Shown: one piece after another, positions 4,484 to 30,717 of the stretch
How the letters are laid out: every line of letters begins with the position of its first letter
Position numbering within the stretch: the first letter of the stretch is position 1
Source of the DNA: Chloroflexota bacterium
GTDB lineage: Bacteria; Chloroflexota; Dehalococcoidia; UBA2979
NCBI GenBank assembly: GCA_002716405.1
Contig: PBBA01000006.1
Coordinates: 289,683-353,682 of the forward strand
DNA: 64,000 nucleotides
Reading direction: 5' to 3'
Notes under the pieces: generated by a model
The model's input: only the letters and a program-made list of their open reading frames with translations
Database searches by the model: none
What the model was told of the DNA's origin: nothing
Position numbers and translations under genes: made by a program

Positions 4484-5889
4484 CAGATTATCTCCCTAAC
4501 ATCTACAAAATTACCTGAAATGGCTGCAGCAGCAGCCATTTCAGGACTAACGAGATGTGTTCTTCCACCAGCACCTTGACGTCCTTCAAAATTTCTGTTG
4601 CTTGTAGAAGCACACCTTTCTTGAGGTAATAAAATGTCTGGGTTCATTCCTAAACACATCGAACAGCCAGGCTCACGCCATTCAAAACCTGCATCTTTAA
4701 AAATTACATCTAACCCTTCTTCTTCTGCTTGTTGTTTAACTTTACCCGAACCAGGAACAATCATTGCATTTACAGAAGAAGACACTTTTTGACCATCAAT
4801 AATAGTTGCTGCCCTTCTTAAGTCTTCTATACGCCCATTCGTACAAGATCCAATAAATACTCGATCTATGCCTATATCCGTAATTGCTGTACCTGCCTCT
4901 AAACCCATATATTTCAATGCCCTCTGAGCAGTTTCGCGCGAAGATGCAGTCGTAGCATCATCAGGGTTAGGCACTACATCACTAACTGGTACACTTTGCG
5001 CTGGCGTAGTTCCCCAAGTCACATGTGGTGCTATGTTGTTTCCATCCAAAACGATCGATTTATCAAAAATCGCACCATCATCACTCACAAGTTTTTTCCA
5101 ATTTTCTACCTGTCGATCCCAATCTAATCCAGAAGGTGAAAATTCTTTACCACGTAAATATTGAAAGGTTTTTTCATCTGGAGCTATCAATCCTGCTCTT
5201 GCACCACCTTCAATAGTCATATTACACACTGTCATTCTTTCTTCCATCGAAAGGTTACGAATTACATCACCACGATATTCAATTACATGTCCAACACCAC
5301 CATCAACCCCAGTACGCTGAATAATGGCTAAAATTACATCCTTGGCTGTGACTCCGAATCCAAGTTCACCTGTAACTTCAACTGACATGGTTTTCGGTCG
5401 ACTTTGTGGTAGTGTTTGTGTAGCTAAAACATGTTCAACCTCTGAAGTACCAATACCAAAAGCTAAAGCACCAAACGCACCATGCGTTGAAGTATGACTA
5501 TCACCGCAAACAATGGTCATACCAGGTTGAGTTAGACCATGTTCAGGACTAATGATATGAACAATACCTTGCCGCAAATCAAATATATCCCACAAAGGAA
5601 TATCAAAATCATTGCAATTCGTTCTCAAAACTTCTATTTGTTGAGTAGACAAGGGATCAGGATTAGGTAATGTACGATCGGTCGTAGGCACATTATGATC
5701 TACTGTTGCTAACGTTAGATCAGGCCGACGTACGCTCCTGTTTGTCATTCTTAATCCATCAAATGCTTGAGGTGATGTAACTTCATGAACTAAATGTAGA
5801 TCAATGTATAAAAGGTCAGGCTTGCCCTGTTCTGAATGGACAACATGTTGTTCCCAAATCTTATCTACAATTGTTTGCGGTTGAGTCAT
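4483..5889 (-). CDS. leuC: 3-isopropylmalate dehydratase large subunit
   Basis: Aconitase-family motifs [15 protein letters not shown] and CSMCLGMN. The ATG at 5889 has GGAG 6 nt upstream; the track ORF starts 4 codons earlier. Confidence 0.92.
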
Positions 5890-23252: not shown

Positions 23253-24284
23253 ATGAAATCTCCAGCATTTGGATTAAACAGATTTGATTTTTCAACTCCA
23301 AGTTTATTTGCTCAAGATGTAAAGCGTGCTGAAAGTCTTGGATGGGATTATGCTTTTGTCCCTGATTCACAGTTACGTCGACATGATACCTACGTATTGT
23401 TAGCATCCGCAGCTGTCAATACTTCTTCAATTAATCTTGGCACCCTACTTGCAAACCCAATCACAAGGCACTTAACAGTTACTGCTGGATCAATTGCAAC
23501 TATCGATGAAGTCTCAGAAGGAAGGGCCGTATTGGGGCTTGGGATAGGAGATACTGCTGTTCGACTAGCAGGATTAAGTCCAGCGAAAGTATCAACTCTT
23601 GAAAAAAGTACAAAATCAATTCGTGATCTTCTTAGAGGAAAGGAAATTGAACTTGGTGCAGTAAAACCATCCTACCTTCCACACCATCGCCCAGTTCCGG
23701 TATGGATTGCTGCTGCAGGCCCTCGTACTTTGAGAGCAGCAGGACGAGTAGCCGATGGTGTTTTTATCCGTGTTGGAATGCATCTTGAAAATATAAAATT
23801 TTCAGTTGAACAAATTTTCTCTGGTGCACGTGAAGTAGGTAGAGATCCTAACGAAATTAAATTGGGACTGGTAGTCCACACAATCCTAGAGGATAATATT
23901 GAGAAAGCACTCTTGATGGGTAAATCGATGGCAGCCGGATATTATGAATATTCTCCATTTCTCTTTGACAAACCTTCCATCCCATGGGAAGGACCTGACA
24001 TTGAAAATCTTAAAACCAAAGTACATCCTGATTTTCACCATCATCCAGATCTTGTTGAGTCAGGTAATTTAGTTAACTTCTTACCTGATAGTGCAGCGTA
24101 CTCATTTGCTGCACTAGGATCAGCAGAAGCAATAACAGAGCAATTTAAGAACGTACTCACACAAGGAATAGAATTCGATATTATCGTACCGCATCCTGTT
24201 CCTAATCCAATACCAAAATCATATACAGAAAAACAAACTTACATGGAAATTATGGGCAAAAACGTACTCCCAAAATTAAGATAA
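23253..24284 (+). CDS. Luciferase-like monooxygenase (LLM) family oxidoreductase, probably F420-dependent
   Basis: LLM TIM-barrel-type sequence (GRAVLGLGIGDT..., WIAAAGPRTLRAAGRVADG). F420 dependence is inferred from family resemblance and the F420 genes in the window. Confidence 0.65.
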   Translation: MKSPAFGLNRFDFSTPSLFAQDVKRAESLGWDYAFVPDSQLRRHDTYVLLASAAVNTSSINLGTLLANPITRHLTVTAGSIATIDEVSEGRAVLGLGIGDTAVRLAGLSPAKVSTLEKSTKSIRDLLRGKEIELGAVKPSYLPHHRPVPVWIAAAGPRTLRAAGRVADGVFIRVGMHLENIKFSVEQIFSGAREVGRDPNEIKLGLVVHTILEDNIEKALLMGKSMAAGYYEYSPFLFDKPSIPWEGPDIENLKTKVHPDFHHHPDLVESGNLVNFLPDSAAYSFAALGSAEAITEQFKNVLTQGIEFDIIVPHPVPNPIPKSYTEKQTYMEIMGKNVLPKLR

Positions 24285-26765: not shown

Positions 26766-27914
26766 CTAGTTATTGCTCTCAATTCTAATTGATACTCTTG
26801 TAAGATTTTTCATGCCAAGATCGCGTTCAATCGAGAGAATACCGCTATAACCTAGAGTAGAATTTTGAAAACCCAATAAACTTGAAGAACCTCTAGACAT
26901 ATCCTCAACCAATTCCCATCCTTGAGTATTTAATAAATCTCGATATAGATCTGTTATCGCTGAAACTGTCTCGTCAGAGTGTAACGAGCTCTGAAAATTT
27001 GCAGTCCCTTGATCTATAGACCAATTAATATCAGTAACTATCGCACCTTCTAAGAAAAGAAATTTTGCAGGAAATTTTTTAGGAATAGGGCGTGATATAG
27101 ATTCTTCTGATAGCTTTACATCAAATTCATTATCCGAGTCGATATTTAACCGGTACATTATGGATGACTTTGCATCGGTAACTTCATCTAAGCTTGCCAT
27201 TGCATCGTCAAGATCTGCTACAGAGCCAATTAAATTACCTTCAATTGATGTAATTATGTCACCAGCAATCAAGGAAGAATGGTACTGAGACTCTTTTATC
27301 ACTATGGAATTTTCTTCTTCTATGTACGTAAATGTAGGGAATGGTTCAATACTTCCGCGAGGAAGCTCCACAGAAATTGACTTTCCTGCGCGGAGAATTT
27401 CCATATCAATCTTTAAATCAGGAGGGAAAGCTTGAATCGTTACCAGGCCAGTTATGTTTGGATTTTCAGTATTCCTAAAGGAAACAACAGAAAAAGTATT
27501 ACTTGATTGTCCACCATCTAACTGCCACGGGCTAATATTCAATTGCTTCTGAATATCCTCTTCGACACTTAAAGCAGCAGCAGCAGTATCAAAAATCAAC
27601 CACACAACATGCGAACCATCCTGCTTCAAAACATGATAAGAGGCCAACAACTCCCCCTCAGGGTGAACAGGAAGGGCAATGGGTTCTTCGCGACCATCAA
27701 AACTAGAAAGATTTAACAAATATGATAAATATGGAGGTAAAGTTTTTTCAAAATAGAATACTTGGTTGCCGAAGTCACTAGCTTCAAATAAACGAAAATA
27801 TCTATCAGGTCCATTTGAAAAATCAGAAGAACTTTTTAGATTTTCATTATCACCAAAGCAAGACAAACCAAGACAAATAATAGGGATAATTAAAAAATAT
27901 ATTTTTTTCGACAT
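26766..27914 (-). CDS. Lipoprotein with a PDZ-like segment, unknown function
   Basis: MSKKIYFLIIPIICLGLSC lipobox; LIAGDIITSIEGNLIGSVADL PDZ-like. The first 25 codons of the track ORF overlap tRNA-His and are rejected. Confidence 0.6.
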   Translation of the reverse strand: MSKKIYFLIIPIICLGLSCFGDNENLKSSSDFSNGPDRYFRLFEASDFGNQVFYFEKTLPPYLSYLLNLSSFDGREEPIALPVHPEGELLASYHVLKQDGSHVVWLIFDTAAAALSVEEDIQKQLNISPWQLDGGQSSNTFSVVSFRNTENPNITGLVTIQAFPPDLKIDMEILRAGKSISVELPRGSIEPFPTFTYIEEENSIVIKESQYHSSLIAGDIITSIEGNLIGSVADLDDAMASLDEVTDAKSSIMYRLNIDSDNEFDVKLSEESISRPIPKKFPAKFLFLEGAIVTDINWSIDQGTANFQSSLHSDETVSAITDLYRDLLNTQGWELVEDMSRGSSSLLGFQNSTLGYSGILSIERDLGMKNLTRVSIRIESNN

Positions 27915-27927
27915 ATATACTCGTATA

Positions 27928-28004
27928 TGGGGTGGATGATGGGATTTGAACCCACGGTCTCCTGGGCCACAACCAGGCGCTTTAACCACTAAGCTACACC
28001 CACC
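27928..28004 (-). tRNA. tRNA-His (GUG), with encoded G-1 and CCA
   Basis: G-GUGGGUG-UA-GCUU-AGUGGUUA-AAGC-G-CCUGG-UUGUGGC-CCAGG-...-GUGGG-UUCAAAU-CCCAU-CAUCCAC-C-CCA cloverleaf. Confidence 0.93.
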
Positions 28005-28092
28005 ATGTAAATCATTATCAACTAAATGATCGTATCATCTAGCCAGCAAGAGATCCCATTATGCAACTAATCAACAAAATAAAACACTGCTA

Positions 28093-28593
28093 TTAAAACT
28101 CTTTTGAAAGTTTTCGATATTTACCCTTAAAAAATAAAAGAGGATCGTCATCAGAATTATTCGAAGCAAAATCAACAACTTCACCCACAATTATCGTATG
28201 GTCACCACCTGGAAATTGATCTCTTATCTTGCATTCAGCAAATGCAATACAACCATCAAGTATCGGAGTCCCTAAAACACCCGTATGATAAGGAGTTCCA
28301 CTAAGAGGTTCTTCCATACGTCCATGTTTAGCAAAAAGAGTAGAAATATCTTCTTGATTTTCACCTAATATATTAACTGCAAATGAACTAGTGCCTGCCA
28401 AAGCTGTATGCATTGAAGCAGTTTTGGCAACACAAATTAATATTAATGGTGGATCTAACGATAATGAAGAAAATGCATTTGCCGTCATTCCATATAATTC
28501 TTCAGACTCAAGGGTAACAACCGTTACTCCTGTGGCAAAAATTCCCATCGTATCTCGAAATGATCTCGAATCCACCGATTTTTCTTCACTCAT
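28093..28593 (-). CDS. Flavin reductase-like (HpaC/split-barrel FMN-binding) protein
   Basis: FRDTMGIFATGVTVVT and ...GDHTIIVGEVV motifs. Start taken at MSEEKS, because the track ORF's first 20 codons overlap tRNA-Sec. Confidence 0.8.
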   Translation of the reverse strand: MSEEKSVDSRSFRDTMGIFATGVTVVTLESEELYGMTANAFSSLSLDPPLILICVAKTASMHTALAGTSSFAVNILGENQEDISTLFAKHGRMEEPLSGTPYHTGVLGTPILDGCIAFAECKIRDQFPGGDHTIIVGEVVDFASNNSDDDPLLFFKGKYRKLSKEF

Positions 28594-28624
28594 CCAACAC
28601 CTCAAGTTCAAAATAATCACTACC

Positions 28625-28721
28625 TGGCGGGAATGCGTGGGAGTCGAACCCACCCAGGACTACGACGTAGCCCCGCAACGGTTTTGAAGACCGCGAACAC
28701 CACCAGGCATTATCCACTCCC
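28625..28721 (-). tRNA. selC: tRNA-Sec (anticodon UCA), selC-type
   Basis: 97 nt: GGGAGUGG AU AAUGCC-UGGU-GGUGUU (6-bp D stem, 4-nt loop), GCGGU-CUUCAAA-ACCGU (UCA anticodon), a long variable arm GGGGCUAC-GUC-GUAGUCCU, GUGGG-UUCGACU-CCCAC, and an extended acceptor ending G-CCA. Confidence 0.88.
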
Positions 28722-28813
28722 ACACATATCATACTTACATATTAGGAATTGGAGTATCGCTTAATCATGTATTATTATGCATAAAGCTAATTATATAAGA
28801 GCAAGGAAAAAAA

Positions 28814-29317
28814 TTGACAATTGAACAACCCTCAGAAGAAGATCTTTCACAAGCTTCACCAGAAAATATTAATAAGATGCGTAAATTCGTTAATAACTTT
28901 GCCGAAAAAAGTGGTAGCTTTTTACACCCACAATCTGAGATTACAGAATTTCTAGTCATAGGTTTGGCAAAAAATATTGATGAGGTTGGAAGACCTCTTT
29001 GCCCTTGTATGTTTTTTGAGGACAAAGAAGAAGAAATAGAAAAGAAATTCTGGATTTGTCCATGTGAAGAAATGCAAAGATGGAAATATTGTCACTGACT
29101 ACTTTTTTGCGACGAGGAAGGTCTTCCCGTCACAGAGCATTTACCAGAAGATCATGAAGGAAGAGAGGCGTATGGTCTCCGTAAAGATCCTGACCCAAGT
29201 AAAGGTAGAGCCCTAGGAAGGCTTGAGGAAAAGCAAGGTAGATCGCTTAAAAAAGGTCAACGATCTAGTAATGAATCCAATCAGACTGGGAACAAAAATC
29301 CAAAAAATATTATCTAA
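28814..29317 (+). CDS. Ferredoxin:thioredoxin reductase catalytic-subunit homologue, predicted selenoprotein (in-frame UGA at 29096..29098 read as Sec)
   Basis: CPC-(16)-CPC-(8)-CH[UGA]-LLF matches the FTRc CPC...CPC...CHC.LF pattern exactly. 72 stop-free codons follow the UGA in an AT-rich genome. A SECIS-like hairpin lies 12 nt after the UGA, and tRNA-Sec is 93 nt upstream. The track ORF stops at 29098. Confidence 0.7.
29111..29131 (+). promoter_or_regulatory. Bacterial SECIS-like hairpin
   Basis: GACG(A)GGAA-GGUC-UUCC-CGUC: an 8-bp stem with one bulged A and a GGUC apical loop starting 24 nt after the U of UGA. Confidence 0.6.
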
Positions 29318-29637
29318 AGTACCGCATCGATATGCTTAGCAAGTTCACTCTTTGGACGAAATCCTATAACTTGACCAACATTTTCTCCGCCTTTAAAAAG
29401 CAACAATGTAGGAATTGAACGAATCCCATACTTACCAGATACTTGAGGATTTTCATCAGTATTTAACTTCACAAATTTAACTTGTCCATCATAGTCGTCA
29501 GATAGTTCTTCGACGACTGGAGCTACCATCCTGCAAGGTCCACACCACGGTGCCCAAAAGTCTACCAAAACAGGTAGTTCAGAATTTAAAACATCAACTT
29601 CAAATGTTGAGTCTGTCGTATCAGTAGGGTGTGCCAT
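29314..29637 (-). CDS. trxA: Thioredoxin
   Basis: [18 protein letters not shown], 107 aa. Its 3' end overlaps the extended FTRc ORF by 4 nt (convergent). Confidence 0.93.
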
Positions 29638-29718
29638 TTTTCACCTGCTTTCTATTCTCTTAACTAATACCATATAGTACGCAACCTAGGACTTGTTGGC
29701 CAGTTTTACAAATATAAT

Positions 29719-30717
29719 TTAAGTATAGCGAGATGCAATTATCGTACGAACTTGTTGCAGTATACCTAACTGATCTGCTTGAGCGGCATTAATTATTGCA
29801 TTATGCACTGCCACAGCATCACTACGACCATGACCAATGAAAACAGATCCTTCAACACCAAGTAAAGGTGCAGCGCCATATCTCCGGTAGTCTAAATTGG
29901 ATCTAACTTCACGAAGAGATGGTAAAAGTAAAGCACCACCCAAACGAGAACGAAAAGATTTATGAGCTGTTGATCTCATAATATCAAACAGCATTGAAAT
30001 AGTGCCTTCGATAATTTTTAAGGCATTATTACCTGTAAATCCATCCGTAACAATTACCTGACAATCTCCAGTAACTATATCTCGTCCTTCGATATTACCT
30101 ATAAAGTTTATGAATGAATCATTTTCCAACTTCTCGTAAGCTTCCTGAATAAGAGTAGAGCCTTTTGATGCCTCCTCACCTATAGATAAAAGACCAACTT
30201 TCGGTGAACCAAATCCGTGAGTCGCTTTCATATATACTGTACCCATATCCGCAAATTGAACCAGATGTGAAGCCTTGGATTCTGCATTAGCTCCCCCATC
30301 AATTAATAAAGATGGACCACCGGGTGTAGGTAAAACTATTGCTAGCCCAGGGCGTTGTACGCCTGGTAGTCTCCCTAAATGAAGCAGGGCCGCTGCTAAC
30401 ATTGCACCGGTATTACCCATAGAAACAAATGCACTAGCTTGCTTACTTTTTACTAGTTCCATTCCGACCCATATCGAAGAGTCTGTACGATTACGAATCT
30501 GCATACCAACTTGCTCATCCATTGCTATCACGTCAGATGCGTGCACAATCTCTAATGAATCAGGAAAATCACCTAATTCATTTATTGCTTTTTCCAAAAT
30601 ATCCTGGTTGCCAATTAAAAAAATTTTAATACCTTGATTAGCAGCTGAGAAAGCACCTGCGACGGCTGCTTCAGGGGCAGCATCACCTCCCATTCCATCA
30701 ATCGCTATAACGGTCAA
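29719..30717 (-). CDS. plsX: Phosphate acyltransferase PlsX
   Basis: IAIDGMGGDAAPEA start, GNTGA and TDGFTGN motifs. Confidence 0.92.
   Translation of the reverse strand: MTVIAIDGMGGDAAPEAAVAGAFSAANQGIKIFLIGNQDILEKAINELGDFPDSLEIVHASDVIAMDEQVGMQIRNRTDSSIWVGMELVKSKQASAFVSMGNTGAMLAAALLHLGRLPGVQRPGLAIVLPTPGGPSLLIDGGANAESKASHLVQFADMGTVYMKATHGFGSPKVGLLSIGEEASKGSTLIQEAYEKLENDSFINFIGNIEGRDIVTGDCQVIVTDGFTGNNALKIIEGTISMLFDIMRSTAHKSFRSRLGGALLLPSLREVRSNLDYRRYGAAPLLGVEGSVFIGHGRSDAVAVHNAIINAAQADQLGILQQVRTIIASRYT

Follow-up and report, generated by a model that had tools for sequence, protein, structure and literature searches.

A predicted selenocysteine form of the ferredoxin:thioredoxin reductase catalytic subunit probably belongs to a family-conserved thioredoxin-system locus in Dehalococcoidia

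Gene content of the locus

We analyzed a stretch of 64,000 nucleotides (the window) from contig PBBA01000006.1 (positions 289,683 to 353,682) of a Chloroflexota bacterium of the class Dehalococcoidia (GCA_002716405.1; here genome G000, 1.3 Mb and 84.5% complete), and in particular positions 28093-29637 of the window, which hold a homologue of the catalytic subunit (FTRc) of ferredoxin:thioredoxin reductase (FTR) with an in-frame TGA codon. An earlier note on this DNA had described four genes in the interval, and all four were confirmed where it had placed them by the list of open reading frames (ORFs), by the sequence itself and by profile and tRNA searches. Together with a hairpin that resembles a bacterial selenocysteine insertion sequence (SECIS), they are:

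28093-28593, minus strand: HpaC/PheA2-type short-chain flavin reductase, 166 amino acids (PF01613, 147.5 bits, covering positions 1-152 of the 153 in the profile)
28625-28721, minus strand: selenocysteine tRNA (tRNA-Sec, selC), anticodon UCA (ARAGORN; Rfam RF01852, 72.6 bits, gathering score 47)
28814-29317, plus strand: FTRc or ferredoxin:disulfide reductase (FDR) homologue, 167 amino acids, from a TTG start to a TAA stop (PF02943, 83.1 bits, cut-off 22)
29111-29131, plus strand: SECIS-like hairpin, GACG-A-GGAA[GGUC]UUCC-CGUC, within the FTRc gene
29314-29637, minus strand: trxA, thioredoxin with a WCGPC motif (TIGR01068, 132 bits)

The tRNA-Sec gene is divergent from the FTRc gene, from which 92 nt separate it, and trxA is convergent with FTRc. 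Read straight from the sequence, the two convergent genes overlap by 4 nt (29314-29317), as the earlier note had reported. The likely start of the flavin reductase is the ATG at 28593, giving 166 residues, because a longer ORF of 186 amino acids that begins with GTG and extends to 28653 enters the tRNA-Sec gene. A promoter and terminator scan of 27800-29800 returned no element exceeding shuffled expectation.

Probable selenocysteine insertion at the in-frame UGA

The in-frame TGA of the FTRc gene occupies positions 29096-29098 and is codon 95, in a Cys-His-selenocysteine (C-H-U) context. The frame past this codon is open in more than 30 genomes and is strongly conserved with homologues that carry Cys at the same site (LLF..E.GLP.TE.LP..HEGRE.YG). 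Downstream of it, the GGUC loop of the hairpin stands at a distance of 25-28 nt, counted from the first base of the UGA. In an alignment of the hairpin from 16 genera, 89% of cells were paired and three pairs showed two-sided changes; at pair 18:34, 8 sequences have U-A and 5 have C-G. The covariation score was reached by none of 500 shuffles, which served as control, and slid controls collapsed. Furthermore, the apical GGAAGGUCUUCC was invariant in 15 of the 16 selenocysteine (Sec) forms. An unbulged register with 7 bp was also tried and was rejected, as only 63% of its cells were paired and it showed no covariation; the bulged register fits better. Profile searches recovered both selA and selB above their cut-offs in G000. 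We consider it very probable that Sec is inserted at the UGA of the FTRc gene.

The idea that FTRc is the sole selenoprotein, and explains the adjacent selC as such, was ruled out, since two further genes of G000 carry an in-frame TGA. One candidate is a member of the UGSC family with a D-U-G-S-C motif (G000:C1:54815-55393, minus strand), which scores 129.5 bits with NF041046 against a cut-off of 125 and is followed by a 7-bp hairpin 3' of its TGA. The other is a thioredoxin-fold protein with a W-U-M-S-C motif (G000:C3:175275-175823, minus strand), which has a hydrophobic, lipoprotein-like N-terminus and matches thioredoxin models weakly.

Active site, fold and C-terminal extension of the FTRc homologue

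The FTRc homologue contains the motifs C63-P-C65, C82-P-C84 and C93-H94-U95. It aligns without gaps to the Synechocystis FTRc (1DJ7_A) over residues 18-100, such that query residue q corresponds to chain residue q-8. C63, C82, C84 and C93 align to the [4Fe-4S] ligands C55, C74, C76 and C85 of 1DJ7, and C65, H94 and U95 to Cys57, His86 and Cys87, respectively. By this alignment, Sec would take the position of Cys87, the partner in the Cys57-Cys87 active-site disulfide that interacts with the cluster, and the residue predicted to attack thioredoxin remains a Cys. The roles of these active-site residues are reportedly those of the FTR mechanism that Dai et al. published in 2007.

An AlphaFold2 model built from 69 homologues had a mean predicted local distance difference test score (pLDDT) of 88 and was confident to about residue 145. 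Its core superposes on 1DJ7_A with a root-mean-square deviation of 1.0 Å over 88 residues, and the C-terminal extension is without a match there. Fold and sequence searches also recovered 4TPU (42.5 bits) and 7PWE, both FTR-like proteins without a variable subunit.

The Pfam FTRc match ends at residue 103, and 72 residues follow the Sec. The earlier note had seen in this part a Lys/Gly/Asn-rich tail of about 70 amino acids; most of it is conserved and confidently folded, and only the last 20 or so residues are of low complexity. Conservation within the clade extends from residue 96 to about 140, in Sec and Cys forms alike, while residues from about 146 to 167 form a variable end rich in Lys, Asn, Gly and Ser with a pLDDT below 50, in which the model shows residues 150-166 as disordered. 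The tail is thus predicted by the model to consist of some 45 residues that form a structured extension specific to the clade, followed by a low-complexity end of about 20.

FTRc, trxA and tRNA-Sec are linked across the family

We compared 37 FTRc loci with 5-kb flanks, which represent all 21 genera of the window's family and include four loci from outside it; counts of neighbors refer to the 31 Sec-type FTRc loci of the family. trxA was the convergent downstream neighbor of FTRc at 28 of these 31 loci, and was followed by plsX and a methyltransferase gene. A tRNA-Sec gene lay within 5 kb upstream of FTRc at 20 loci and was divergent every time. Furthermore, at 10 loci, from 7 genera, a homologue of thioredoxin reductase (TrxR) was the immediate divergent upstream neighbor of FTRc, and it had the canonical NADPH motif HRRxxxRA at all four loci where its sequence was read. 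The ancestral order was probably selC - trxB - ftrC(Sec) - trxA - plsX, and it persists in G015, G111, G104 and G008. In the window the plsX gene of this conserved block (FTRc-trxA-plsX-methyltransferase, block B) is:

29719-30717, minus strand: plsX (PF02504, 327.8 bits)

The earlier note had asked whether its four-gene neighborhood is conserved in relatives. Conservation was found for FTRc with trxA and, at the 20 loci, with selC, but the flavin reductase shares this neighborhood in a single genus. The lack of a conserved neighborhood that the note had named as speaking against its proposal was therefore seen for the flavin reductase and not for FTRc-trxA-selC.

Two side observations were made at other FTRc loci. 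Near a Cys-type FTRc on a contig of GCA_031400455.1 (L051, 2549-3781) lies a gene for a 410-residue protein that combines a glutaredoxin with a pyridine-nucleotide-disulfide oxidoreductase, and trxA is not adjacent. Near the FTRc of G081 (L140), ARAGORN called two unusually long 'tRNAs', at 1122-1212 (91 nt, Arg-CCG) and at 4922-5019 (98 nt, Trp-CCA); both fall below every Rfam gathering score and are probably false calls in GC-rich DNA.

The flavin reductase belongs to a separate gene block

Among the 37 loci, those of genus g1, whose members include G000 and G001, were the only ones with a flavin reductase gene inside the 5-kb flanks of FTRc. Among 24 sampled family genomes, an orthologue of the flavin reductase was present in 23 and FTRc in 18, and five family genomes had the reductase orthologue where FTRc was not found. 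Wherever the orthologue was located, as in G006, G011, G016, G013 and G001, it was adjoined by tRNA-His, which is its conserved neighbor in the window as well and marks the end of a second synteny block (block A):

27928-28003, minus strand: tRNA-His (ARAGORN)

This block also includes a lipoprotein-like ORF, an AN1-like Zn protein and a CysRS-like gene, some of which were not recovered in some genomes. The window has at this place a 407-residue ORF (26766-27989, minus strand) whose GTG start overlaps tRNA-His; ATG 27914 is its likely start and yields a lipoprotein-type signal, MSKKIYFLIIPIICLGLSC. The ORF is without a Pfam match, and several relatives have conserved it alongside the flavin reductase and tRNA-His.

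The distance between the flavin reductase block and the FTRc block was 13-30 kb in G006, G010, G011 and G018 and 96 kb in G016, and in G013 the two lay on different contigs. The DNA between the blocks varies. As judged from its ORFs, that of G006 carries what look like insertion-sequence genes, along with a transhydrogenase, an enoyl-CoA hydratase and a luciferase-like oxidoreductase, and that of G011 carries what look like flagellar genes. The blocks abut in the genomes of genus g1, which are 1.3-1.6 Mb in size. The simplest reading is that genome reduction in genus g1 removed both the island between the blocks and the trxB linked to the locus, and that this brought the flavin reductase beside FTRc.

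The sequence of the flavin reductase holds the motifs SLDPP and GGDH. Its matches in the PDB are PheA2 (1RZ0, the best, with 115 bits), StyB and HpaC, all of them reductase components of two-component monooxygenases, and it stays under all NCBIfam equivalog cut-offs (FerA, 143 against 260; HsaB, 136 against 230). G000 encodes 16 luciferase-like (PF00296) oxidoreductases within its 1.3 Mb, one of them only 4 kb away (23253-24284, plus strand). The single flavin reductase probably supplies reduced flavin to luciferase-like monooxygenases, which would be likelier clients than FTRc.

Electron donors and thioredoxin reductase

The earlier note had seen neither an FTR variable subunit nor a ferredoxin gene nearby, and both observations were borne out. 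No match to the variable subunit (PF02941) was found anywhere in G000 at its 84.5% completeness, while a Synechococcus control genome gave a match, and inspection of the ORFs between 26000 and 32000 showed no ferredoxin gene. Elsewhere in G000 a single small ferredoxin candidate was found, a 7Fe-type ORF on another contig (G000:C6:57758-58033). G000 also encodes a TrxR-type ferredoxin-NADP reductase (FNR), which matches 2ZBW with 335 bits and YumC of B. subtilis (3LZW) with 304 bits. The description of the four genes as a self-contained thioredoxin-reducing system is therefore not upheld, as these two candidates for electron supply are encoded elsewhere in the genome.

The note had also called for a check for trxB in the genome. 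A single TrxR homologue is present in G000 (G000:C4:79062-79967, minus strand; locus L002:1492-2400), and its CATC redox motif is intact. However, it scores 284 bits with TIGR01292 against a cut-off of 343 and carries NKNxxxT in place of the canonical HRRxxxR, with NKN/NRN..T variants within the genus. A canonical NADPH-thioredoxin reductase (NTR) was not found in any of the three genomes of genus g1, in which the variant TrxR was the only homologue found. The trxA of the window encodes the only canonical thioredoxin found in G000, as it gave the only match above the cut-off. A tentative proposal is that in genus g1 the Sec-FTRc serves as the main reductase of the single thioredoxin, with electrons passing from NADPH through the TrxR-type FNR and the 7Fe ferredoxin to FTRc, and with an Fe-Se intermediate, in an aerobic marine heterotroph; this is possible, with the odds standing against it.

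Proposed mechanism and alternative explanations

Our preferred reading, to which we give a probability of roughly 0.7, is that selC, ftrC(Sec) and trxA form a family-conserved thioredoxin-system locus from which the flavin reductase is separate, and that electrons run from ferredoxin through FTRc to TrxA. The protein would be an FTR-type ferredoxin:disulfide reductase that operates without a variable subunit. To insert Sec at the UGA (29096), the cell would use SelB, the tRNA-Sec next to the gene and the GGUC hairpin 3' of the codon. In the enzyme C63, C82, C84 and C93 would hold the [4Fe-4S] cluster, and a Cys65-Sec95 selenenylsulfide would be the redox-active pair where the classical enzyme has its Cys57-Cys87 disulfide. 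If the reaction follows that of the Synechocystis FTR, a one-electron donor would cleave the Se-S bond; the likeliest donor is the 7Fe-type ferredoxin, which the TrxR-type FNR could reduce. Sec95 would then ligate the unique iron of the cluster and Cys65 would attack the disulfide of oxidized TrxA. A second electron would free the selenolate, upon which the mixed disulfide would be resolved and reduced TrxA released. Ferredoxin as the donor, TrxA as the substrate and the selenium chemistry are all drawn by analogy with the classical enzyme.

FTR takes single electrons at its [4Fe-4S] site from docked ferredoxin, and not a hydride or free reduced flavin. This general property stands against the proposal of the earlier note that the flavin reductase is the physiological donor of a self-contained chain from NAD(P)H through flavin and Sec-FTRc to thioredoxin, with no need of a variable subunit. 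The proposal draws on the adjacency of the genes in G000 and G001, where tRNA-Sec is followed, 31 nt downstream on its strand, by the flavin reductase, and both share a divergent intergenic region with FTRc, and on the absence of a canonical trxB among the genes found in genus g1, which would make another NAD(P)H-linked route useful. However, the adjacency is confined to that one genus: no flavin reductase lay within 5 kb of FTRc at any other locus examined, the located orthologues being 13-96 kb away or on another contig. The orthologue also occurs in the five family genomes in which FTRc was not found, and its nearest solved relatives serve two-component monooxygenases. On synteny and co-occurrence the flavin reductase was rejected as a partner of FTRc, and we consider its role as donor very unlikely. 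Even less credible is the explanation that the TGA is a true stop that leaves a truncated remnant of 94 residues or a pseudogene. Products of this length that end at His94 do stand in public collections (P0063, P0070), but truncation there would remove one of the two redox-active residues, and more than 30 genomes keep the downstream frame open, with its protein sequence conserved. Moreover, Cys homologues align through the UGA site, compensatory changes keep the hairpin, and tRNA-Sec, selA and selB are all present.

Several observations weigh against the preferred reading. For both ferredoxin dependence and specificity for TrxA, the argument is from homology and gene linkage, and the linkage to trxA is confined to one family, in which plsX and the methyltransferase gene are conserved in the same block; neither the Cys-type FTRc genes within the family nor the loci beyond it have trxA, tRNA-Sec or TrxR neighbors. 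FTRc and trxA could not be co-transcribed, because they are convergent, and inherited synteny without functional coupling could account for their adjacency. FTRc would in that case reduce a substrate other than TrxA, such as another redoxin or a low-molecular-weight disulfide, and the solved FTR-like enzymes of non-phototrophs, which are fused to rubredoxin (4TPU) or glutaredoxin (7PWE), fit such a role. We nevertheless regard this alternative as unlikely: a canonical trxB stands at the same locus in 7 genera, which brings three thioredoxin-system genes together, trxA is the only canonical thioredoxin gene found in G000, and the residues with which the classical FTR reduces thioredoxin are all retained (C65, H94 and U95 for C87). 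Within genus g1, the shared intergenic region means that the flavin reductase and FTRc may be co-regulated. On the side of Sec insertion, the search for selD in G000, at its completeness of 84.5%, found none; in G001, of the same genus, and in three other family members selD was found with its own in-frame TGA (G001:C4:100288-101217 in the former), so that SelD itself would be a selenoprotein there. Predicted hairpin energies, finally, gave no clear separation between Sec and Cys forms and were dropped as a discriminator. They are uninformative because the encoded E-G-L-P itself favors a palindrome, and we therefore relied on the invariant apex and the compensatory pairs.

Comparison with known enzymes and distribution

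The FTRc homologue shares with the classical FtrC/FTRB of cyanobacteria and chloroplasts (1DJ7, 2PU9, 7BZK; PF02943) the CPC-x16-CPC-x8-CH(C/U) spacing, the core fold and the equivalent of His86, and, as with the classical FTRc, a thioredoxin gene adjoins it. It differs in having Sec at the position of Cys87, the cluster-interacting partner of the disulfide, and in adding about 45 conserved, structured C-terminal residues and about 20 disordered ones. Unlike the classical heterodimeric FTR, it has no variable subunit (PF02941) that was found in G000, and unlike the classical hosts its host is a non-photosynthetic marine bacterium of the Dehalococcoidia type. In this respect it resembles the FDR of Methanosarcina acetivorans (4TPU) and the glutaredoxin-FDR of Desulfotalea psychrophila (7PWE), which likewise have a [4Fe-4S] cluster, occur in non-phototrophs and lack an FTRv partner. 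Those proteins are fused to rubredoxin or glutaredoxin and have Cys, whereas the FTRc of the window is unfused and has Sec and a clade-specific C-terminal extension; similarity is also weaker here, with 42.5 bits to 4TPU. The flavin reductase, for its part, matches PF01613 over its full length like the HpaC/PheA2/StyB-type reductases (1RZ0, 2ECR, 4F07), but in contrast to two-component monooxygenase operons there is no monooxygenase gene directly beside it.

Selenoproteins of the FTR type have been known since 2008, when two such sequences, one of them with two Sec residues, were reported with a bacterial SECIS in metagenomic data of Global Ocean Sampling (GOS) (Zhang and Gladyshev, 2008; PMC2398784). 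Reviews list the Sec-FTR family as NF041072, the 'FtrB family double-selenoprotein', with the motif CxU. The FTRc described here has, like these, Sec at the position of a redox-active Cys and a bacterial SECIS, but NF041072 has Sec in place of both redox-active Cys residues and the protein of the window has a single UGA, with Cys at the Cys57 position. Membership in NF041072 was rejected; because the score was 48.6 bits against a cut-off of 160, the window FTRc belongs to a separate, single-Sec clade. A literature search for Sec-FTR in SAR202 or Chloroflexi found no specific report.

As the protein family was reported in 2008, the present analysis adds context more than it does a discovery. 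The selenium-containing FTR-type enzyme that is central to a thioredoxin locus found throughout the family is cut short in public gene calls, which end it at His94 after 94 residues. By analogy with the classical enzyme, selenium would sit at the residue predicted to touch the [4Fe-4S] cluster during catalysis. Genus g1, in which no canonical NTR was found, offers a natural system for the question of whether an aerobe without photosynthesis can rely on ferredoxin to drive its thioredoxin reduction.

The single-Sec clade is concentrated in one family of Dehalococcoidia. The FTRc gene was present in 77 of 99 species genomes of the window's family, about 70 of the 77 having the in-frame TGA, and of 300 genomes sampled evenly across the phylum, only three others had it. 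In the FTRc tree, 30 of 31 Sec forms made up one clade (support 94/94). The outlier, from G020 (L131 / L033, G020:C79:5166-5615), grouped among Cys forms and is without a trxA neighbor, and its hairpin differs (GAUGG-CGUGC-CCAUC). Its placement and its differing hairpin thus suggest a second, independent origin of Sec from Cys.

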